This document shows positions 9-52,362 of a stretch of 64,000 nt of DNA, piece after piece. The position numbers and the translations under genes were made by a program. The stretch's first letter is position 1; every line of letters starts with the position of its first letter. A model generated the notes under the pieces. That model was not told the origin of the DNA, ran no database searches, and was given only the letters and a program-made list of their open reading frames with translations. Source of the DNA: a virus; the IMG/VR virus record IMGVR_UViG_3300033407_000001, positions 7,824 to 71,823 of that record; one strand, written 5' to 3'.

Positions 9-740
9 GTCTCGTTATCAAAGCCAACGAGCAAGCTATTTAAAGATGCGCTCGCATTCTGCGGAGGTTAGGTAGTCTCGTCATCAAAGCCAAACGAGCA
101 GGCTTTTAGGATTGGCAGGAGTGATGGCCAAATGCAGACAGCTGCGGTCTCGTTATTAAAGCCAACGAGCAAGCTTTTAAGATCAAATATCTCTGTGGAA
201 ATGTCGTAGAGTGTAGGGTCTCGTTATAAAAGCCGACGAGCAAGCTGTTTAAGCGAGGACCCTTGAGCAAGGCGATGTTGAGCGCATTGTCTCGTTATAA
301 AAGCCAACGAGCAAGCTGTTTAAGTCGTACTCAGGTAGGCACCGTCAACCTGCCAGTAGAGGTCTCGTTATCGAAGCCAACGAGCAAGCTATTAAGTTGG
401 TAGCGTTGCCTGGCTCGGACCGGACCGCAGGACGTCTCGTCATCAAAGCCAAACGAGCAAGCTGTTTAAAGGTGATGTCGTTGATAGCGCAAGGCTTTCG
501 ACTGGCCGTCTCGTTATTTAAGCCAACGAGCAAGCTATTTAAGATCGCTCTTCACCAGTGTGGAGTCTCGTCCTTTAAGCCGACGAGCAAGCTGTTCAAG
601 GAGCACGGGGGCTTCTGGCTCGTTGCCAACTACACCGGTCTCGTTCTTTAAGCCAACGAGCAAGCTGTTCAAGGTGGCGAGTGATGCTGATCAAAGCCAA
701 ACTTGTCTCGTCATCAAAGCCGACGAGCAAGCTATTCAAG
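9..740 (-). CRISPR. Type V CRISPR array, 11 degenerate 35-38 bp repeats and 10 spacers (21-37 bp); probably continues beyond the left edge
   Basis: Repeats start at 9, 75, 147, 218, 289, 362, 434, 508, 565, 638, 705. Plus-strand consensus GTCTCGTYATCAAAGCCRACGAGCAAGCTRTTYAAG; minus strand ends ...GAGAC with hairpin CTCGTY-9nt-RACGAG. Lies 41 bp downstream of the Cas12m-like gene on the same strand. Confidence 0.97.
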
Positions 741-781: not shown

Positions 782-2803
782 CTAATTTCGAGAGGTGGCT
801 TTTCGGACTCTTTTAGCAGGTTCTGCTGGTCCGATTGTTTCCTGGAAAATCCAATCATATTTAGTATTTACAGCCAATGATGGGATGCCTGACTTCCTCG
901 GGTCACCTGGGGTCTCGAAATCGGGTGGGGTTCCTCCGCCGCTGCGGCAGAGGTTGATAGCAGCATTCGCATCCTGGTCCCAGAAGGCACCGCAATCCGA
1001 GCACCAATGATTGATGGATAGCGCATGATCCCAATCGTTAATCACTCCACATTGATGGCACATAGCAGTTATGTGCTTAGAGTCCAGCGCTTCGAATATC
1101 GCGCCATGGTTTCCGCAGGCGTTATTGATGAGGATCCGCATTTTCCCAGGAGATGCGAGTGAGGCTTGTTTTCTGACGATTTTGCTGTTCAGCTCACCGT
1201 CGAAATTTTCCTTGGTCTTGAATTTTGCGTAATTTGTATTATCGACTACAACCTTGCCATATTCACGGGCAAGGAAGGCAGCAAATTTTCGATATGCGTC
1301 TTTCTTGCGTAGCTGGCAGCGGTACTCGATGCCGCGTGTCCTATTATATGCAGCCTTGTCCAGACTTCGCCAGGTTTCCAGTTCGCCAAACATGGCTTCA
1401 TCGCCATCGAAGCGATTTTTTCTCCAATGAAGAACGAATGACGCTAGCTTACGTTGAGATTCCCAGTTTCTAATCATACTGATGCCGCGCCATCCGGTTA
1501 GCCACTGCGGAAGGCTGTCTTGCTCTTTTTTATGACGAGACAGCCAGACCGCAAAAGACTCTTTAATCTGATTGAGTGCCAGGTCTCGCGCCGCCTGCTT
1601 TATGCACATCGTTTCCATCTTTTTGCTGTATTCACCCTCAAGGATGACTTCGCCGTGGCGACCATCGTCTCCGTACCAGTAGGCTGCGCGGATGTTATTG
1701 TCACCGACTCTTCTCCAGCCCAGATTCACTGCGACGACCCCAGGGCGCTGAACTTCTTTTGCCTTATCCTTGCTTAGAGTCAGTTGCAGGTAAAATCGGT
1801 AGGTGGTGCCTGATCTTTTCTGCACAATCTTGGCCCATTTGATTTTCACATCATCTGGGATACTCCTATGCATTGTAATGGGAAATTCCACCCATATTGG
1901 CTTCATGCGATTGGTTGGCGAAGATCCAACACGTATGCGCACCGTTGTTCGACAGTTTTTGCGCCGGAAGGCCCGGTCTGGGGTGCCATCCGGTCTATTC
2001 TTGGTCCAAGGATTGTCCTCCGGGGTCGAGAACGGTTTTGTGATCTGAAGGAATTTGCTACCACCCCATGCCTGCTCGGCGGTGATACCTTTCTGCAGTT
2101 GGACTGAGACAATACCGTCACCAGACCAATGTTTGAATTTTGGATCTTTCCTTCTCCCAGGAGCATATTGGGCCGCCCTAGCGGCTCTTTCGTTTGCCCC
2201 GTAGGTGCCCCAGCATATCTTATGCTGCTCCCTGAACTCATTGCGTATCCTTTTGATTTCCGCAGCGAGTTTCTTATTGTTGGCCGTTATCTTATCTTCA
2301 ATCTCTGGGCGCTGTTTGATTTCCTCGCGTATATCCTTTCGCTCAGAAGTAGCAACCTTCTTCTTAGCCGTAAGCTTTTTCTTGAGATCTTTTGCTCCCT
2401 TATTGGTCTTGTCGGCCTTGAGGATGGCCTTGAGTGATTTGATTTCTTCGGATAGCTCGTCGATCGTTGAATTCAACTCCTCCATGCGGAGGCTAGGGGC
2501 TTCACCTATGATTTCCCTGTATAGCTTCGTTGAGGCTCGATAGGCCTCAGTGAGCTTGTTCCGATGGTCGTGCCCCAGGCGCAGTTGATAGATGAGAGTG
2601 TGACCATTGCACAGGTCACCATCGGTGTCCTGATTACATTTTGGACAGTCGCTCTCCGGTCCCGCGAATGTCGGTCTCCCAAGGCGGAATTCAATAGTAT
2701 TTTCGACTGTTTTATGGCTTTCGATTTTGCAAATCGAACAGACCTGAATCAGTTCTTTTTTTGGATCTGGATGGTCTCCCCACCTGTGTTGATGTGTAGG
2801 CAT
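782..2803 (-). CDS. cas12m: Type V-M CRISPR effector, Cas12m-like (TnpB-derived; RuvC predicted inactive)
   Basis: RuvC-I VAVNLGWR (Asp replaced by Asn), RuvC-II VVVDNT (Asp for Glu), Zn finger CHQC...CSDC, RuvC-III DQDANAAINL, WGTY and GDGIVSVQLQ motifs, long Lys/Glu coiled-coil REC insertion. These match MmCas12m motifs as recalled (ALHLGWR, VLVDDT, GSGTIAVQLQ). Abuts the array. Confidence 0.85.
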   Translation of the reverse strand: MPTHQHRWGDHPDPKKELIQVCSICKIESHKTVENTIEFRLGRPTFAGPESDCPKCNQDTDGDLCNGHTLIYQLRLGHDHRNKLTEAYRASTKLYREIIGEAPSLRMEELNSTIDELSEEIKSLKAILKADKTNKGAKDLKKKLTAKKKVATSERKDIREEIKQRPEIEDKITANNKKLAAEIKRIRNEFREQHKICWGTYGANERAARAAQYAPGRRKDPKFKHWSGDGIVSVQLQKGITAEQAWGGSKFLQITKPFSTPEDNPWTKNRPDGTPDRAFRRKNCRTTVRIRVGSSPTNRMKPIWVEFPITMHRSIPDDVKIKWAKIVQKRSGTTYRFYLQLTLSKDKAKEVQRPGVVAVNLGWRRVGDNNIRAAYWYGDDGRHGEVILEGEYSKKMETMCIKQAARDLALNQIKESFAVWLSRHKKEQDSLPQWLTGWRGISMIRNWESQRKLASFVLHWRKNRFDGDEAMFGELETWRSLDKAAYNRTRGIEYRCQLRKKDAYRKFAAFLAREYGKVVVDNTNYAKFKTKENFDGELNSKIVRKQASLASPGKMRILINNACGNHGAIFEALDSKHITAMCHQCGVINDWDHALSINHWCSDCGAFWDQDANAAINLCRSGGGTPPDFETPGDPRKSGIPSLAVNTKYDWIFQETIGPAEPAKRVRKATSRN

Positions 2804-3975: not shown

Positions 3976-5040
3976 CTATAGGGCGCCGCCAGCGGATATC
4001 TTTGATTGCTGCTCCAGCCAAAGCTTCTTAGCCCATTCACCCCTGGTGGTGAGTTCATAATGCATAGGATCGACAAAATCGATTGATTCCCATTCTCCCA
4101 TGGCCCGCTTGAAGGCGTCTGTAGAGTTGATCGCCTGATCGTTCTGGTCATATCCAATGCCAAAGTCTCTCACCAAGTGTAGCCACTCCATCCGACCCCA
4201 GTTCATCCCACAGGAGAAGCCAACGGAGATGAAGGCGATGAATAGCTCCAGTGGCATGCTGTCTGGATACACCTCGAAGTATTGCTTGGAGAATGGGAGG
4301 ATCGTATGAATCGGTCCTCGATCAGCGATGTTAGGGGTGCAAGGTATCCATTTGATCTTACCGTTGATCTTCACCTTGCGTTGCCACTTGTGATGCTTGG
4401 AGACGCCACGATTCATCTCCATGTTCTGATCAAATGCAAAAGCCCATGAGTGATAGCTCAGTGGATTGGATTTGTTATGGCGGATGTGTCGAGGGGAATA
4501 GGCGCCAATTTTGGTCAGGTAGCTGAGGACTTTGTAGACTATGCCCATGATGGAAGAGGTTCGCGCCTCCAACTCCTCACAACGAGATAGACCCTCCCGG
4601 AAGTAGATGCCGGCCCGATTCTCCATATACAGACGAGGCCTGTCGTTGTTCCAATTGCCGGGCAGATTCTCGTGTACCTTCAGGTTGGCCTTCGGGAATT
4701 GCTTGTTGCCGGTGTCGTTTGATGGTCGTCCGTAGACGCCATAGACACTGAGTTCACCCTCCTTTGGGTAGCGGCGGGACGGAAGGGCATCCAGGGGGCC
4801 GTCAAATGGCCTGTAGAGGACCTCCATCATCAGATCCCATCTCAGCTTCCATTCGGATGGCTCCGGCTCAGAGGGCTCCACAGGAGGCGCAGGAGTGACC
4901 ACCTCCCCAGAAGCCTCGGTTGGTGGGCTTTCCACGGGAACCTTTTCAGGAAGGACCGGTATGTCCTCTTCGGTTGGCTTCTGCGGGTTCTCGATAGCAC
5001 CGAAGATCTTAAGTATCAGGTTCCATATGGCTGCGATCAT
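3976..5040 (-). CDS. M15-family Zn peptidase (endolysin-like) with Pro/Glu-rich N-terminal linker
   Basis: R...SYHSWAFAFD and DPMHYE motifs of M15 peptidases. Confidence 0.7.
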   Translation of the reverse strand: MIAAIWNLILKIFGAIENPQKPTEEDIPVLPEKVPVESPPTEASGEVVTPAPPVEPSEPEPSEWKLRWDLMMEVLYRPFDGPLDALPSRRYPKEGELSVYGVYGRPSNDTGNKQFPKANLKVHENLPGNWNNDRPRLYMENRAGIYFREGLSRCEELEARTSSIMGIVYKVLSYLTKIGAYSPRHIRHNKSNPLSYHSWAFAFDQNMEMNRGVSKHHKWQRKVKINGKIKWIPCTPNIADRGPIHTILPFSKQYFEVYPDSMPLELFIAFISVGFSCGMNWGRMEWLHLVRDFGIGYDQNDQAINSTDAFKRAMGEWESIDFVDPMHYELTTRGEWAKKLWLEQQSKISAGGAL

Positions 5041-5130: not shown

Positions 5131-5254
5131 AGAAAATTAGCGCCGCAAAGGATTGCGTTGTAACCACCTCGTAAAGCCCGTAGATGATTGCAGCGGAGCA
5201 TATTTTCCAACCATTCGTGGTGGTTTTAGACGGCAAGGTCATGGTAACGTTCAA

Positions 5255-5290
5255 AGTGAAAAGCCTGCTTGATGGCTTAGAAATCAAGAC
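5255..5290 (+). CRISPR. Solitary variant CRISPR repeat (unit A)
   Basis: AGTGAAAAGCCTGCTTGATGGCTTAGAAATCAAGAC; last 31 nt identical to 33075-33105 (minus) and 23/31 identical to the array consensus with a compensated stem; extended -10 TGGTAACGT at 5242-5250. Confidence 0.7.
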
Positions 5291-5304
5291 CAACCCATAG
5301 TCCC

Positions 5305-6262: not shown

Positions 6263-8018
6263 TTTTCACTGGTATGAACTGAAGCACCTTGGCTACGTCC
6301 GGTTCCTTAACTTCGAGTCCACGCTGCTTCATGAATGCTTCGGCGAGTTTCTTGGAGTTGTGCCCCTCGGTATTGCTGCGTGCGATGAGGCTTGCATTGG
6401 GATCTCTGATGCCTTGCATTTGAGATCTCTTCACGCCTAGGACGTCGGCAATGATCGGATCACTGCCAAATTCCGAGAGTAGGTAATAGGCCATGACTGG
6501 GTCTGGTTGACCATCCCTGTGGGCTCGCCCTGTACATTGATCGTGGACCCCTGGCGACCAGTCTAGCTCACCGAACACAACGGTTCTGCAGCAGTACTGC
6601 AGTCCATCCAATCCGGCGCCGGCACGGAGGGACATCATCAGAATTTTGCTTTCGCCCTCAACAAACCTTCGCTTGGATTCGATCTTCTGTGCCGTACTTT
6701 GCCTGCCCGTGTACATGGCCGGGTTGAGGTCTTTCAGCTTTGCCTGCCATATTCCATAAACCTCATGGTGCCATCCATATAGAAGAACGGATTCACCAGA
6801 TTCTACGAGTATTCTTACAAAGTCTGCAACATACGGCGCCTTCGCAAGGCCGGTGGCCTGCCTGAGTACGTTCGATAGCTGCTCTGCAGCCATCATCTTC
6901 ATGCCCTTCTTGGCTTCGCCTTGGGCAAGGATTATCTGGGCCAGCTCAGCCGCTGAGTCCTCAATTTTACTGAGTTCTTCAGTGTTGGCTTCAATGGCGT
7001 GGGGAATCTTAGTGAGGGGCTCAAGCTCACGGCCAACCTCGCTTCTAGTCCGCCTGATCATCAATCCGATTTCCCTGAGATAAGATCCAAAACCCTTTGG
7101 ATCTGTTATCGATGGTTTATCTCCAGATGATCCACTGCACCATTCTCTGAGAAATTCTGCGCGAGTCCCTAGTACGTCAGGAGCAATCGATGACATGACG
7201 TTAAAGAATTCTCCACCGTAGTTGTAAATCGGAGTCGCGCTCAATCCGACGCGAGTCCTGGAATGGCCGGATACGTGCGCCGCTGCAATAGTCTTCTGTG
7301 ACTCAGATCTGCGCAATTCTTGGCACTCATCGAAGATAACACTCTTGGTCACACCAGCGAGAGTCTCTGCCCAACCACGAAGTTTGTGGTAGTTGATGAT
7401 GATAACGTCAGGGAAGAGGACCTTTTTCTCTTCTTTGTTTTTACCCCTGCCGACGGTTACTTTGGTCATGTCGTACGGAGAACTCTTCTTTACGATATGA
7501 GTACGAAGTCCAGGAAGGAACTTGTTTACTTCACTCTCCCATTGCTTAGGAAGGTGAGTCAGCGTGACGACGAGCGCTGGTAAATTAGACGGGTCAGTGA
7601 AAATACACATGCCGGTGATCGTCTTGCCAAGTCCAAGATCATCAGCAACGAGAAGTCTGCCAGTTCGCATCGCAAGGGCGGCTGCTACCTTCTGGTATTC
7701 TCTCGGCGGTAAAGCCATTTCCATCTCTGGCGGCTCGTATCCATCGGCTAGGATATCTGCAATGGCTGAGTCCTTAGCTCTCTGTTCATCGGCTTTTTCC
7801 GTCAGAACCAGCTGATCATTGGCCTCGATCTCCATTGGATACCGAGACATGAACCACTCAAGCTCCCTTGAGTTGTCAGTGGTCGCAGATAGCCATTGTT
7901 CGCCATACTGGCCTTTGTCTATCTGTTTGAAGATTCTCTTAAGTCGGAGAGCCACTTGTGGCTCGCATTGTATGACCCAGGTATCTTTGACTAGTGCTAC
8001 TTTTCCGTACGTTCTCAA
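6225..8018 (-). CDS. SNF2/DEAD-like SF2 helicase
   Basis: ADDLGLGKT, FDECQELR, LSATPIYN, MSLRAGAGLDGLQ, DQCTGRAHRDGQ. Confidence 0.93.
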   Translation of the reverse strand: MRTYGKVALVKDTWVIQCEPQVALRLKRIFKQIDKGQYGEQWLSATTDNSRELEWFMSRYPMEIEANDQLVLTEKADEQRAKDSAIADILADGYEPPEMEMALPPREYQKVAAALAMRTGRLLVADDLGLGKTITGMCIFTDPSNLPALVVTLTHLPKQWESEVNKFLPGLRTHIVKKSSPYDMTKVTVGRGKNKEEKKVLFPDVIIINYHKLRGWAETLAGVTKSVIFDECQELRRSESQKTIAAAHVSGHSRTRVGLSATPIYNYGGEFFNVMSSIAPDVLGTRAEFLREWCSGSSGDKPSITDPKGFGSYLREIGLMIRRTRSEVGRELEPLTKIPHAIEANTEELSKIEDSAAELAQIILAQGEAKKGMKMMAAEQLSNVLRQATGLAKAPYVADFVRILVESGESVLLYGWHHEVYGIWQAKLKDLNPAMYTGRQSTAQKIESKRRFVEGESKILMMSLRAGAGLDGLQYCCRTVVFGELDWSPGVHDQCTGRAHRDGQPDPVMAYYLLSEFGSDPIIADVLGVKRSQMQGIRDPNASLIARSNTEGHNSKKLAEAFMKQRGLEVKEPDVAKVLQFIPVKNDATEETDSENY

Positions 8019-23063: not shown

Positions 23064-23520
23064 GGTCTATCTTGCCCAGGCGATTATACCAGCCAGCAAC
23101 CTCTCGGTCGGAAACCCATCTCTCCGGAACGCAGCCATGTGGACATCGCATCCTGTTATTGTCAACCATTCCGTAAAGACGGCAGATAAGTGGGCGGGAC
23201 TCATGAATGCCGCACCGTTTATCTTTGGTCAACGCCGGGCAGGTATAGTCGTCATGTCCGCATAAAAGATTGCCATCTGGCATCTCTCCAAGAAGAGGAT
23301 TTGTTGAATTATTGGATGGGTTGGCGACGAATCGTACGACTTCTCCTAGGTATCCTTTATGAGCCTTTCTGACGATAGGCATTTCGGCATCGACAACGGG
23401 TATGGTTCCGCACGTCCCATGGCATAGTCCTTTACACCAGATCCCAGGTATCTCCTTGTACAGCGCAAGAACCTTGGCGCGAGCGTCTCGACGCCGTTGC
23501 TTATCCTTTTTGCTGCTCAA
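23050..23520 (-). CDS. YkgJ/UPF0153 Cys-cluster protein
   Basis: CKGLCHGTC...CPAL....CGIHESRPLICRLYG. Confidence 0.8.
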   Translation of the reverse strand: MSSKKDKQRRRDARAKVLALYKEIPGIWCKGLCHGTCGTIPVVDAEMPIVRKAHKGYLGEVVRFVANPSNNSTNPLLGEMPDGNLLCGHDDYTCPALTKDKRCGIHESRPLICRLYGMVDNNRMRCPHGCVPERWVSDREVAGWYNRLGKIDRGKE

Positions 23521-33019: not shown

Positions 33020-33184
33020 CAATTGTCAAGCTGGCCTAGGGTAGGTCGAGGGCGGAGTTGATTTTCTCTTCCTTGTCTTGATTTCTAAGCCATCAAGCAG
33101 GCTTTGCAGCTATTTATTGCTGAATGCTGCAATTGTCAAGCTGGCCTAGAGTAGGTCGATGGCGAAGTTAATTCGCTCTTCTTT
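33020..33184. repeat. Imperfect 55-bp direct repeat (33020-33074 and 33130-33184) bracketing solitary repeat unit B
   Basis: 48/55 identity at a 110-bp offset; each copy contains TTGACAATT; copy 2 encodes the recombinase C-terminus. Confidence 0.9.
33075..33110 (-). CRISPR. Solitary variant CRISPR repeat (unit B)
   Basis: GCTGCAAAGCCTGCTTGATGGCTTAGAAATCAAGAC; 33/36 identical to unit A; TTGACA (33134-33139)-N17-TAAATA directly upstream. Confidence 0.75.
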
Positions 33185-33718
33185 GAAACTCAGGTATTGG
33201 GATGTGGAGGTAATCCACTTGTGCCCAAGTGCTCCTTGGAGCTGCTTCAGATCACCATCAAGGAGGTCATGCATTCGATCGGCAAAGGTCTTGCGCATGC
33301 AGTGAGTCCCGAGAGTTCCGGTCATACCGATAGATTTAAATGCCTTATCGAAGATCCGCCACACCTGAACTCGTGATATCCTCTTGTGGGCGGTTGAGCA
33401 GAATAGAGGAGTCTCCCCCACACACCCTCCTATCTCCTCGATCCAAGCAGCAAGGGCAACCTTAGCCTTGGAGTTCAGCTTGACCGTCCTCCCCTCCCCC
33501 TTGCCTTTCATGGCAGACCGTCTTACAGAGACGGTATCGACAATTCGATCGAACTGAAATACATCAGACACATTGAGGGATAGAAGCTCACTGATGCGAA
33601 ATCCAGTCATCAAGCCGACCGTGAATAGGCAGGCATTCCTAACTCCATTGCTTCCGCAGTGGAGAGTCGCAGTAACCAATTCCGATTCCTGCTTTGTCAA
33701 TGGCCTGCATCCCTTCAT
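33146..33718 (-). CDS. Small tyrosine recombinase (catalytic domain only)
   Basis: RNACLF...TGFRISELLSL, HCMRKTF, LGHKWITSTSQY (R-H-R-H-Y catalytic set); class-B promoter. Confidence 0.92.
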   Translation of the reverse strand: MKGCRPLTKQESELVTATLHCGSNGVRNACLFTVGLMTGFRISELLSLNVSDVFQFDRIVDTVSVRRSAMKGKGEGRTVKLNSKAKVALAAWIEEIGGCVGETPLFCSTAHKRISRVQVWRIFDKAFKSIGMTGTLGTHCMRKTFADRMHDLLDGDLKQLQGALGHKWITSTSQYLSFKEERINFAIDLL

Positions 33719-44618: not shown

Positions 44619-44891
44619 TCAAGGGCGCGGTTTAAGGTTATCATCGAAGAAAACAAGCCATTGGTCCCTGGAGAGACCAGTAGCTAAGGTGAGAGGAGCC
44701 TTCGCCCATGCAACCATAATGAGGTCACAGAGTATCTCGTCGGAGGTTGTTTCCATGACGTTGAAGAAGTAGGGGCGGTCACCGCTGAACTCTTCGGCCA
44801 ATTCGTTGATGGCATCCTGGGTAGCGCAGCACTCCAGCTCGCTTTTGCCAATGAGTCTCGTAAGGAAGTTCTGTGTGATTTGTCGTTCCAT
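44619..44891 (-). CDS. Hypothetical protein
   Basis: Tandem class-A plus class-B promoter; start MERQI. Confidence 0.7.
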   Translation of the reverse strand: MERQITQNFLTRLIGKSELECCATQDAINELAEEFSGDRPYFFNVMETTSDEILCDLIMVAWAKAPLTLATGLSRDQWLVFFDDNLKPRP

Positions 44892-45057
44892 ATTCAGTAA
44901 ACACCTGAGGCCCCGTACAATTTCACCTATATTTAGCAATTATCAAGGGCGCGGGTAGATGGAACTAAAAAAGAAACCTCTGAAAGATTACCTAACCCCA
45001 ATAGAAGATCAGAAGAAGAACCAAAGGAAGAAGGAAAAGCAAAACCACTGCTGTCAC

Positions 45058-45093
45058 GTCTCGTAATCAAAGCCAACGAGCAAGCTTGTTCAG
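45058..45093 (-). CRISPR. Solitary CRISPR repeat of the array type (unit C)
   Basis: Plus strand GTCTCGTAATCAAAGCCAACGAGCAAGCTTGTTCAG, 28/29 identical to array repeat 1; TTGACA (45136-45141)-N17-TGTAGT upstream; no second repeat nearby. Confidence 0.88.
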
Positions 45094-45950
45094 AAAGACA
45101 CTTCGTCAAAGAACTACATCACCTGCTATTTCCATTGTCAATATTTCTAAGGGTGCAGTATCGCGAGGGCTTAGTATGAAAGTATTTTCCTGGACAATAG
45201 CAGATGATGTATTAAGGGGGAATTGTCCATAAAATCGATCCCTTGATCCATTGGCAGATGATCTGGTAATCATAAGGGGTGATGATGAAAATACTTTCAT
45301 GGTTGATTTTGTAACACTGGGTAATTGCTGGAGTTAGGTGGTTGGATATAGTGGGAGGATCTGCTTTCGGCCTCCCTCGCCGGGGCAAAAAAGTTCACAA
45401 AAGATCGAACGCAAATGGACGCAAGTGCAGGAAAACTCCTGAGTTTTCCGAATTTCTCACTGTTCAGGGGAGGGTCAAAAGCTAACGCAAACGAGCCCTG
45501 CATTGTCAAAGCGATTGTCAAGGCAGGGCTCGGATCAGGAAAACTCCTGAGTTTTCCTTATGTATCAGGGAGGTAGTGGTTAGGTTATGGTCTCGTCCCA
45601 GACTGCCCCGTGTTGGCTCCAGGGTAGACAAGCGTCTGAGTTTTCTCTAGGCCCCTACGAGGAAAACTCAAGCCATCACCACTGCTTACCTCTGGGCGCT
45701 CGTCCAGCTCCTTCTTTTTCCTCTTGCCAGCAGCGACTAGATCTCTACCTTCAGCTATAAGCTTCCTGAACATAGCTTGAGTATACCATGAACCCCCAAA
45801 TGGGTGTACCTTGACAATGCAGATCTGATCTCATCCTGAAAAGTTCAAATCCTCGGGGTTTTTCTAACTAACTACCTGAAATGTCGTCATTGACAATTGC
45901 TCGGATTACCAATAATCCACCCTTTCTCTACTATATAAAAACAGATACTT

Positions 45951-46817
45951 ATGGCACCCAAACGCGGCACTGGTGATATTTCAGTCAAACAGGAGGTGTA
46001 TGAAGCCTATCGGGCTCACTGCACAACCCATGAACTCTCGATGCGGAGGGAGATGGATAAGCTGATCGATGGGGTGCTTGATGGTGACCTGAGTTCAGAG
46101 AATGCTCATTGGGCAGCTGTGAATGCGGAGAAGAGGAAGCGGAAGAAGGAACCCACTTTCCGGGAGTCAGTCAGGGAATTCGCTTCCAAAAATGACAAGG
46201 TTCCACCTGAGATTCGGGCTCTGTCTGGTGTGCCAGCTCTGGTTGAGCGTGAGCCAACCAAGGCTGAGCTAATCTCCACTGAGGAGATTCTCGCCAACTT
46301 CTATCGTATTTTTGACGATGGATGTCCCTTTGGTCAGGCGGACCCCTACTTCGTCAAGGTGCTCAGGAAAGATCCGGTGCCAGTTGATGTCACCATTGAG
46401 CTTGGCCTGCCAGCCGCTGATGCTGCCCGCACTGCAAAAGACTTCAAGCTTGAGCCGCAAGATCATCCTGAGCCCTCGCCTATGCCAAGGCCGAGCGCTG
46501 AGCTATTCAAGACAGACCCGGAGATTGCTGAACTCGATGCAGAGATTCAGGCTCGTGTTGCAGACGCCAAGCAGCGAGGGTTGGTATCCAAGCCAACCAA
46601 GGCTGAGTGGGATGCTGAGCTTAGGGAGGAAGCCTTGAAGAAGATGAGGCCGTACCACGCTGGCCCAGCTCTGTTCTCGCCCGAGGGCCTAGAAGAGGCA
46701 AAGGCCGCCCCGAAGGACGACCCTGTTACTCCATCTGCACCTGGCAGGCGAGATATGGGAACCGTATCACTTGGGGAGTTGAAAAGCTGCATCGATCCTA
46801 CTTGGGGCAAGAAGTAA
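45951..46817 (+). CDS. Protein with N-terminal ribbon-helix-helix-like DNA-binding domain and Pro/Ala-rich tail
   Basis: DISV-KQEVYEAYRAHC-LSMRREMDKLIDG strand-helix-helix pattern; TTGACA...TAAT promoter at about 45891. Confidence 0.5.
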   Translation: MAPKRGTGDISVKQEVYEAYRAHCTTHELSMRREMDKLIDGVLDGDLSSENAHWAAVNAEKRKRKKEPTFRESVREFASKNDKVPPEIRALSGVPALVEREPTKAELISTEEILANFYRIFDDGCPFGQADPYFVKVLRKDPVPVDVTIELGLPAADAARTAKDFKLEPQDHPEPSPMPRPSAELFKTDPEIAELDAEIQARVADAKQRGLVSKPTKAEWDAELREEALKKMRPYHAGPALFSPEGLEEAKAAPKDDPVTPSAPGRRDMGTVSLGELKSCIDPTWGKK

Positions 46818-52092: not shown

Positions 52093-52362
52093 GGGTAATG
52101 TTGCTCATTATAAATGTCGGGGGAGGGTGGTTCCTCCCCCGGCGCCCCGCTTAAGCAATGGAAAACTCTAAGAGTTTTCTTTGCCGCGCAAGCGCTTGCG
52201 CTGGTACGATGTGATTCCACCGGGGCGGATAACACGCACCCATATTGATCGGCCTGCTCGCTGGCTTCGATGGCGAGACTGCCTACCTATAGAACACCTG
52301 AGCCAGAGTGAAGTTTCTGCGTTTTCGCTGAAATTCTGCGAGAGCTGAAGTGTTTATGTACC

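Follow-up and report, generated by a model that had tools for sequence, protein, structure and literature searches.

INTRODUCTION

To our knowledge, the lone CRISPR repeats carried by phages have so far been understood as decoys or hijackers of host Cas proteins. We analyzed one such repeat, named solo C, in a 64,000-nucleotide stretch of DNA from a large soil phage (the window), which covers positions 7,824 to 71,823 of the 199,636-bp IMG/VR virus record IMGVR_UViG_3300033407_000001. All coordinates refer to the window unless stated otherwise. Solo C resembles the repeats of a CRISPR array in the same phage, which also encodes a Cas12m effector. We give an even chance to the proposal that it is the source of an early-expressed, Cas12m-loaded RNA resembling a CRISPR RNA (crRNA), with native phage sequence in the place of the guide.

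Several described systems are close to this locus. Viral solitary repeat units (SRUs) and RNA anti-CRISPRs (Racrs) mimic host repeats and are found on elements without cas genes (Faure et al. 2019; Camara-Wilpert et al. 2023, PMC10651486). The crRNA-like RNAs (crlRNAs), CreR/CreA and viral Cracr combine a standalone repeat with an adjacent pseudo-spacer (PMC10120712; bioRxiv 10.1101/2024.10.29.618823). These RNAs have spacers partly complementary to cas or toxin promoters and usually neighbor the cas locus or target that of the host. Mini-arrays carried by viruses and directed against related viruses, described in 2019 (reviewed in PMC11656645), have a repeat-spacer-repeat layout, use host Cas proteins and carry spacers matching the rival virus. 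As for the effector type, the crRNA scaffold of Cas12m2 has been solved, its 5′ seven nt being disordered in the structure (PMC10442227). Bigelyte et al. reported that orthologues with an Asn-Asp-Asp (N-D-D) RuvC triad bind DNA without cutting it, in a manner that depends on the protospacer-adjacent motif (PAM), and the known Cas12m PAMs are T/C-rich (PMC11013384).

RESULTS

A lone type V-M repeat behind a predicted early promoter

The locus was compared with two relatives, the more distant L003 and L002. The latter, a metagenome contig of 7.7 kb, encodes a HerA-like protein with 88% identity to that of the window and is the sole close relative covering the solo C locus. In the direction of the predicted transcription, the locus comprises the following features.

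45132 to 45141, minus strand: −35 box with its extension, TTGACAATGG, of the early (class A) promoter type; the class box, conserved in L002 and L003
45113 to 45121, minus strand: TG-extended −10 region TGA-TGTAGT, with the hexamer at 45118-45113 and a predicted start at about 45106
45094 to 45106, minus strand: predicted 5′ leader, 12-13 nt ahead of the repeat; with the repeat, it forms a block without L002 counterpart
45058 to 45093, minus strand: solo C, a solitary 36-nt type V-M (Cas12m) CRISPR repeat of the array type, identified by covariance model and core identity
45038 to 45057, minus strand: guide-position sequence GTGACAGCAGTGGTTTTGCT, native leader sequence by comparison with L002
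44961 to 45037, minus strand: unstructured tail with 73% pyrimidines that closes with a T6 run (44967-44972); ancestral, also in L002
44937 to 44946, minus strand: next promoter box, TTGATAATTG, which serves the first leftward gene (ATG near 44891) and ends the small transcription unit

A first-pass annotation of the window had reported that the repeat core matches array repeat 1 at 28 of 29 bases, and this holds for 45058-45086. With a covariance model built from the 11 array repeats and four solos in the window, solo C scored 49.9 bits (E of 1e-10), compared with 40-59.7 bits for the 35 array repeats and 14 bits for the best non-repeat match in the genome. Every invariant column of the 15-repeat alignment is kept. 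The single difference in the core turns the loop-closing pair into T-T; one of the true array repeats likewise has this position unpaired. Solo C carries no change that is informative for scaffold covariation. Its sequence and stem, the covarying scaffold and a cognate effector in the same genome all place it in type V-M. Unlike a canonical spacer, its guide is not bounded by repeats on both sides; the nearest other repeat-like match is more than 7 kb away, and cas12m is 42 kb away. Like viral SRUs, solo C is solitary, intergenic, carried by a mobile element and located just downstream of a predicted promoter. It departs from them in that the phage has cas12m and a 35-repeat array, whereas SRUs mimic a host repeat on an element devoid of cas genes.

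The promoter was found as claimed, with TTGACA (45141-45136), a 17-nt spacer, TGTAGT (45118-45113) and a start near 45106. The TTGACAAT box occurs 58 times in the viral record, versus 5.7 expected. G is present at +9 in 41 of these 58 sites, and in the hexamer 17 nt downstream position 2 is A at 32 and G at 13 sites, while position 6 is T at 35. Many sites stand 5-8 nt ahead of a start codon, which implies that the early genes are leaderless. The solo C promoter has the class box, the 17-nt spacing and T as the sixth hexamer base, along with a TG extension; its second hexamer base is G. With the block AGGTGATG, it is conserved at the homologous site in L002 and L003, and the cas12m operon stands behind a promoter of the same class. 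The repeat of solo C starts 48 nt after a TTGACAAT box on the sense strand, and that of solo B, described below, 29 nt after another. A random site lies within that distance behind TTGACAAT with a probability of 0.005, which yields a p value of ~2.5e-4 for at least two of the five solos of the viral record, for a distance window set after seeing the data.

The sequence claimed as the guide, GTGACAGCAGTGGTTTTGCT, indeed occupies 45057-45038 of the minus strand. The pyrimidine-rich tail, announced as about 80 nt ending in seven T, measures 77 nt with 73% pyrimidines, and its final run has six T (A6 at 44967-44972 on the plus strand). The strand switch is genuine, since minus-strand open reading frames end at 44939 and plus-strand ones start at 45951.

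A putative guide homologous to a repeat-less leader

The alignment with L002 spans 44922-46114 at 69% identity. Identity reaches 80/104 over the upstream region and promoter and 36/41 over the next promoter, whereas the leader and repeat (45058-45106) are unrelated to L002 (21/56). Homology picks up again 1-2 nt from the repeat/guide junction, with 16 of the first 20 nt of the guide and 42 of 62 positions of the tail being identical. As GTGACAGCAGTGGTTTTGCT is homologous to the repeat-less L002, it is a pre-existing local sequence and not an acquired spacer; the guide of solo C is, as judged by this comparison, native leader sequence. The simplest history suggested by the alignment is a lineage-specific gain of the repeat inside an older early leader or small transcription unit.

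The first-pass annotation had proposed a stand-alone crRNA gene probably aimed at host or other-phage DNA. The gene-like layout stands, namely, an intact Cas12m-type repeat in crRNA orientation, behind a real promoter class and with one cognate Cas12m. The acquired spacer is not supported: guide and tail are homologous to the repeat-less L002, the viral record has no Cas1, and no protospacer was found beyond a chance match (see below).

L022, a contig from the same sample, encodes a Cas12m that is 53% identical to that of the window, in the same gene order and with a 17-repeat array; IF3 is 81% identical in L021, the equivalent of L022. L002 and L022 likely come from one phage. With the system of L022, this relative thus has Cas12m but not solo C. 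IMG/VR searches with the neighboring proteins for conservation of solo C found nothing.

Several other features of the region were observed. The promoter at 45141 is older than the repeat, and in L002 (~4010-4110) it drives a predicted pyrimidine-rich, unstructured RNA of ~130 nt, which is predicted to stop at a U-rich tract ahead of the next promoter. The CU-rich runs of the 44961-45057 leader complement Shine-Dalgarno-like purine runs, which is of note as the early genes look leaderless. Beside solo C, a 0.8-kb noncoding stretch contains a 14-bp inverted repeat (45176-45189 with 45287-45300) around a smaller inverted repeat and two direct GCAGATGAT repeats. This cluster (45176-45300) is strongly conserved in L002 and is a candidate origin, operator cluster or structured RNA.

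The phage-encoded Cas12m and its repeats

The effector and the array lie at the left end of the window.

782 to 2803, minus strand: cas12m, encoding 673 aa with an N-D-D RuvC triad; second in an operon whose TTGACAAT promoter lies at ~3480
9 to 740, minus strand: in-window part of the CRISPR array (11 of its 35 repeats), downstream of cas12m on the same strand

The 673-aa protein matches Cas12m chains of the PDB with E values of 9e-56 to 2e-30 (best, PDB 23vw), and Asn, Asp and Asp align with the three positions of the RuvC triad. cas12m is the sole Cas12/TnpB-type gene in the viral record, in which a search for Cas1 was also negative. The record thus holds no second effector that might serve the solos with variant stems described below, and this idea was discarded. 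The repeats are 36 nt long and fit the architecture of the solved Cas12m2 crRNA scaffold: the first seven nt at the 5′ end vary, and two nt separate a 6-bp stem from the guide. In the 15-repeat alignment, an invariant G and A are found at the location of the Cas12m2 G(−23)/A(−2) pair, offset by one position in this repeat. The stem covaries: 97.8% of the cells are paired and three of six pairs show compensatory changes, against 30-61% pairing for slid partners. A second helix, formed by AGCY with the loop, covaries in the L021 array (AGCT-AGCT, GCC-GGC; read by eye). The array spacers of this phage are 16-41 nt long. An Rfam scan of the window at gathering scores returned no match.

Two observations concern the arrays themselves. 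In the 17-repeat array of L021 (6886-8030), the loop and the upstream AGCY covary, which supports a pseudoknot helix in these repeats, and the spacers range from 16 to 42 nt. In the phage itself, one repeat-spacer unit (genome 7201-7273, just left of the window start) is present in the viral record and absent from the ENA assembly; it is flanked by two identical repeats, pointing to recombinational loss or assembly collapse.

Target and PAM searches

The searches within the phage covered 256 kb, i.e., the 199.6-kb record and 56.5 kb of additional genome obtained by contig walking. The lack of an in-window target, first noted by eye, was confirmed by computation. The first 12 nt of the guide (≤1 mismatch) or its first 16 nt (≤3) gave one match in the phage, as expected by chance, and none near the cas12m promoter. 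Self-targeting or regulation of a phage gene by the solo C guide was rejected, because the 256 kb hold no second copy of it with up to five mismatches. By blastn-short, neither the guides of the other solos nor the 35 array spacers had significant matches in these 256 kb. The 35 spacers had no match in GenBank phages, this phage or its relatives, and there was no cross-targeting with the array of the relative.

The scans of large collections (IMG/VR, JGI and GTDB) were for exact matches only. In GTDB (185,579 species genomes), the 20-mer guide matched once, in Polynucleobacter. This match was rejected as a target: the PAM position reads CAA, identity does not extend beyond 20 nt, and chance alone predicts about one such match.

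Other lone repeats in this genome

Lone repeats number exactly five in the viral record according to the covariance model. One more lies outside it, for a genome total of at least six. Those other than solo C are as follows.

5255 to 5290, plus strand: solo A, variant stem; a clean ~83-nt insertion relative to L021
33075 to 33110, minus strand: solo B, variant stem; starts 29 nt after a TTGACAAT box
52244 to 52279, plus strand: solo D, with a compensatory stem change of its own; detected by the covariance model
126481 to 126516 of G000 (1082 to 1117 of L024), minus sense: fifth solo, 37 nt downstream of a tRNA-Leu(UAA) gene
8728 to 8763 of L029, outside the viral record, minus strand: sixth solo, array type; 8 nt separate its end from the start codon of an oppositely oriented response-regulator receiver gene

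All six keep a complete scaffold, and their stems covary. The three variant-type solos share a 31-nt core only, which corresponds to the ordered scaffold. The insertion that carries solo A (5207-5294) joins 43-44 nt of unique sequence to the 36-nt repeat, and a direct duplication of 4-5 nt (CCAAC/CAAC) borders it on both sides. Downstream native sequence, conserved in L021, becomes the guide. In both solos with an alignable repeat-less relative (C and A), the guide is therefore native sequence. A shared mobile cassette was ruled out: solos A and C have nothing in common beyond the 31-36 nt repeat, each being preceded by unique sequence. For solo D, the alignment with the relative L004 is too diverged to judge the presence of a decayed repeat. 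The guide of the sixth solo had no match in the 256 kb of phage.

The surroundings of two further solos were noted. A 56-nt promoter block occurs twice around solo B, with 88% identity between the two copies and a spacing of 110 nt (33020-33185). The stretch ahead of the solo's own promoter recurs, in diverged form, as its guide; the upstream copy is preceded by TTTC. Transcription from this promoter is predicted to begin close to repeat position 7, where the ordered scaffold has its 5′ boundary. The sequence following the fifth solo ends like the 3′ half of a tRNA (T arm and CCA), and tRNA-processing enzymes could thus define the ends of a guide-like RNA there.

Lone repeats in other Cas12m phages

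Two unrelated viral contigs with Cas12m-like genes and arrays of related repeats each have one lone repeat, 19-35 kb from the array. In one of these two phages, a sigma-70-like promoter ends 11 nt upstream of the lone repeat. In the other, the 61-kb phage G002, the stem of the lone repeat shows covariation (L008 3213-3264; G002 23204-23263), and a terminator-like hairpin lies directly 3′ of the repeat. Given this hairpin, a guide-less, Racr-like RNA is predicted.

Extent of the phage genome

An ENA contig with the same genes sets the genome size at 286.8 kb or more. The viral record is truncated, and the genome runs at least 86 kb further past the array side (ENA contig of 286,833 bp; Logan contig of 60,254 bp). 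This extra sequence is not a wrap-around to the other end of the record. It encodes a tubulin/TubZ-like protein (L032 4200-5765), indicating a jumbo phage with a PhuZ-type gene.

DISCUSSION

We propose that an extra copy of the phage's own repeat was recently gained at the divergent control region, where it follows the predicted start of an older and conserved early promoter by 12-13 nt. The solo C unit would be transcribed early, at the same time as cas12m, which stands behind the same promoter class. The RNA would fold as a Cas12m scaffold, with a 5-6 bp 3′ stem and AGCY paired with the GGCU loop. Cas12m would then bind it and trim its 5′ end to yield a crRNA-like product of ~50-60 nt, whose 17-20 nt guide would be the native leader sequence lying downstream. 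With its N-D-D RuvC triad, the complex should bind, and not cut, DNA that has the guide sequence beside a PAM. The phage's own locus should be spared, because the end of the repeat (GAC) occupies the PAM position there.

A number of results weigh against this proposal. Neither L002 nor L003 has a repeat at the homologous site, and as the nearest relative lacks the solo, there is no sign of selection on this copy. The guide has no second copy in the 256 kb of phage, with up to five mismatches allowed in 20 nt, and the exact 20-mer scans gave 0 matches in IMG/VR and 0 in JGI metagenomes. The PAM of this Cas12m cannot be inferred, because none of the array spacers has a known protospacer. On the transcriptional side, a generic sigma-70 scan misses the solo C promoter, as position 2 of its −10 hexamer is G, not A. 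A terminator scan found no minus-strand terminator at the T6 run, where the RNA is predicted to form a weak hairpin only (fold z-score of +1.1). None of the public RNA runs contains this DNA, and the contigs from two soil runs yielded the phage's own contig only.

As to what the RNA might be aimed at, its target could be the repeat-less version of the same early leader in co-infecting close relatives, whose early transcription would be blocked by the binding. We regard this as doubtful. TCTC directly precedes the sequence homologous to the guide in both relatives (L002 for solo C and L021 for solo A). This motif is T/C-rich like the known Cas12m PAMs (PMC11013384), but the observation was made post hoc on two cases. 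L002 as it stands is not matched as a target, with a 1-nt indel at guide position 6 and two mismatches. Indels and mismatches affect the seed in both relatives, so that neither L002 nor L021 would match the guides. An alternative reconstruction of the pre-insertion sequence would place GAC, not a pyrimidine PAM, upstream of the guide. In a broader version, which we consider rather improbable, the six or more dispersed and separately expressed repeats would form a self-marking, kin-excluding CRISPR interference (CRISPRi) system, in which solo C blocks the early promoter region of a rival. Insertion of a lone Cas12m repeat would turn the downstream native DNA into a guide and replace the PAM in the inserted genome, while the uninserted allele of a co-infecting relative would retain its T/C-rich PAM.

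Solo C may also be a neutral ectopic repeat, a by-product of array recombination in a nonessential leader that has no function yet. Its near-identity to the array repeats would make it young, both it and solo A are absent from the closest relative, and the ectopic generation and loss of repeats have been documented in CRISPR-Cas genomes (PMC10120712). The lack of a target for the guide in the 256 kb of phage, IMG/VR and JGI, and at better than chance level in GTDB, is also in line with this explanation. Against it, two of the five solos of the record lie in sense orientation no more than 50 nt downstream of a TTGACAAT promoter (p ~2.5e-4). Moreover, the scaffold is complete in all six solos, with the three variant-type ones sharing just the 31-nt ordered-scaffold core, and lone repeats recur in unrelated Cas12m phages. 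We find neutrality unlikely, while giving it real weight. Another alternative makes the repeat a cis-acting or titrating handle to which the guide is irrelevant. It would mark the leader transcript for binding or cleavage by Cas12m, thereby regulating or stabilizing the phage's own RNA, or serve as a Racr-like decoy that soaks up the Cas12m of the phage, the host or a competitor. The location of the repeat at the 5′ end of a transcription unit older than itself, the fact that four of the six solos are co-oriented with local transcription, the G002 solo placed directly before a terminator hairpin and hence guide-less, and the precedent of Racr RNAs for other CRISPR types (PMC10651486) are all compatible with a handle. 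Conversely, the next gene has its own conserved promoter and the leader may therefore not belong to an mRNA, two solos are antisense to their neighboring genes, and a decoy against the phage's own effector would bring no obvious benefit. A handle is in our view fairly improbable.

Two other explanations fare less well. A canonical stand-alone crRNA with a spacer acquired against host or foreign phage DNA would account for the layout, in which a promoter and a repeat are followed by ~20 nt of nonrepetitive sequence. Orphan spacers are frequent in general, and all 35 spacers of the array likewise lack a known target. Nevertheless, the homology of guide and tail to a repeat-less relative, resuming at the junction, largely contradicts such an origin. 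There is also no second repeat, no Cas1 in the record, and no protospacer in IMG/VR or JGI metagenomes, the GTDB match being at chance level, and we deem it very unlikely. Lastly, the pyrimidine-rich stretch might be the antisense of a small Lys-rich plus-strand gene (44961-45068, 35 aa) whose end the repeat overlaps. The plus-strand frame is open, and a 38-aa gene is called at the same place in L002. However, purine-rich DNA of this composition is open in all frames, and the putative gene has no ribosome-binding site, class-B leader motif or leaderless promoter geometry. Compared with L002, most of the codons that differ specify another amino acid and the indels are not clean multiples of three, and L003 has no counterpart, which leaves this explanation with hardly any probability. 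A small peptide on either strand of the tail was likewise dismissed as an effect of composition; a 1-nt indel shifts the minus-strand frame relative to L002.

In this phage and in two other Cas12m phages, lone repeats copy the phage's own repeat and are isolated and dispersed in the genome, with two of them right behind early promoters. If they are expressed and loaded, a phage effector limited to binding would be programmed from many single-guide genes. Placing a repeat inside a transcription unit that already exists would suffice to create a guide, without spacer acquisition, which would represent a new route of guide generation and a natural precedent for compact single-repeat guide cassettes in Cas12m tools. 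The comparison with the repeat-less relative also yields a testable prediction, namely, that the RNA directs Cas12m to the uninserted allele.

In the literature, we found no paper on lone repeats that copy a phage's own array repeat in combination with a phage-encoded Cas12m and a native guide made by insertion. The myxophage MV-1 (bioRxiv 10.64898/2026.09.14.751636) similarly combines cas12m with an array; adaptation genes are absent, and no protospacer has been identified. Its description as a preprint includes no solitary repeats, and its triad is D-E-D versus N-D-D here. The crRNAs of MmCas12m2 and GoCas12m (PMC10442227, PMC11013384) share with the solo C repeat a 36-nt scaffold without trans-activating crRNA (tracrRNA), a repeat 5′ of the guide, a 6-bp stem and a variable 5′ seven nt, and the noncanonical N-D-D RuvC triad is of the type shown to bind without cutting. 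Unlike type V-M crRNAs, solo C is located outside an array, with no downstream repeat and a guide that was not acquired, and the effector of this phage is only 26-31% identical to the solved Cas12m proteins.

The virus-borne mini-arrays are also viral CRISPR elements proposed to exclude relatives, and they are the nearest precedent for a kin-targeting function. In contrast to them, solo C has one repeat, no matching rival was found for it, and its own effector and its own flanking sequence as the guide would take the place of host Cas proteins and a dedicated spacer. With the crlRNA-type RNAs, solo C shares the standalone repeat and adjacent pseudo-spacer. It would also program a Cas effector to bind and not to cut, and the formation of such RNAs from ectopic repeat copies has been described. 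It differs from them in that its guide has no partial match to the cas12m promoter or elsewhere in the 256 kb, and in its distance of 42 kb from cas12m. The viral SRUs and Racrs resemble solo C as single intergenic phage repeats downstream of a predicted promoter, from which a small RNA bound by a Cas protein is expected, as we predict here. In this genome, unlike with SRUs, several copies are dispersed, and solo C is followed by ~85 nt of unstructured native sequence and not by a terminator. Whereas the published SRUs imitate the repeats of their hosts, solo C copies the repeat of the phage itself, which encodes the effector.

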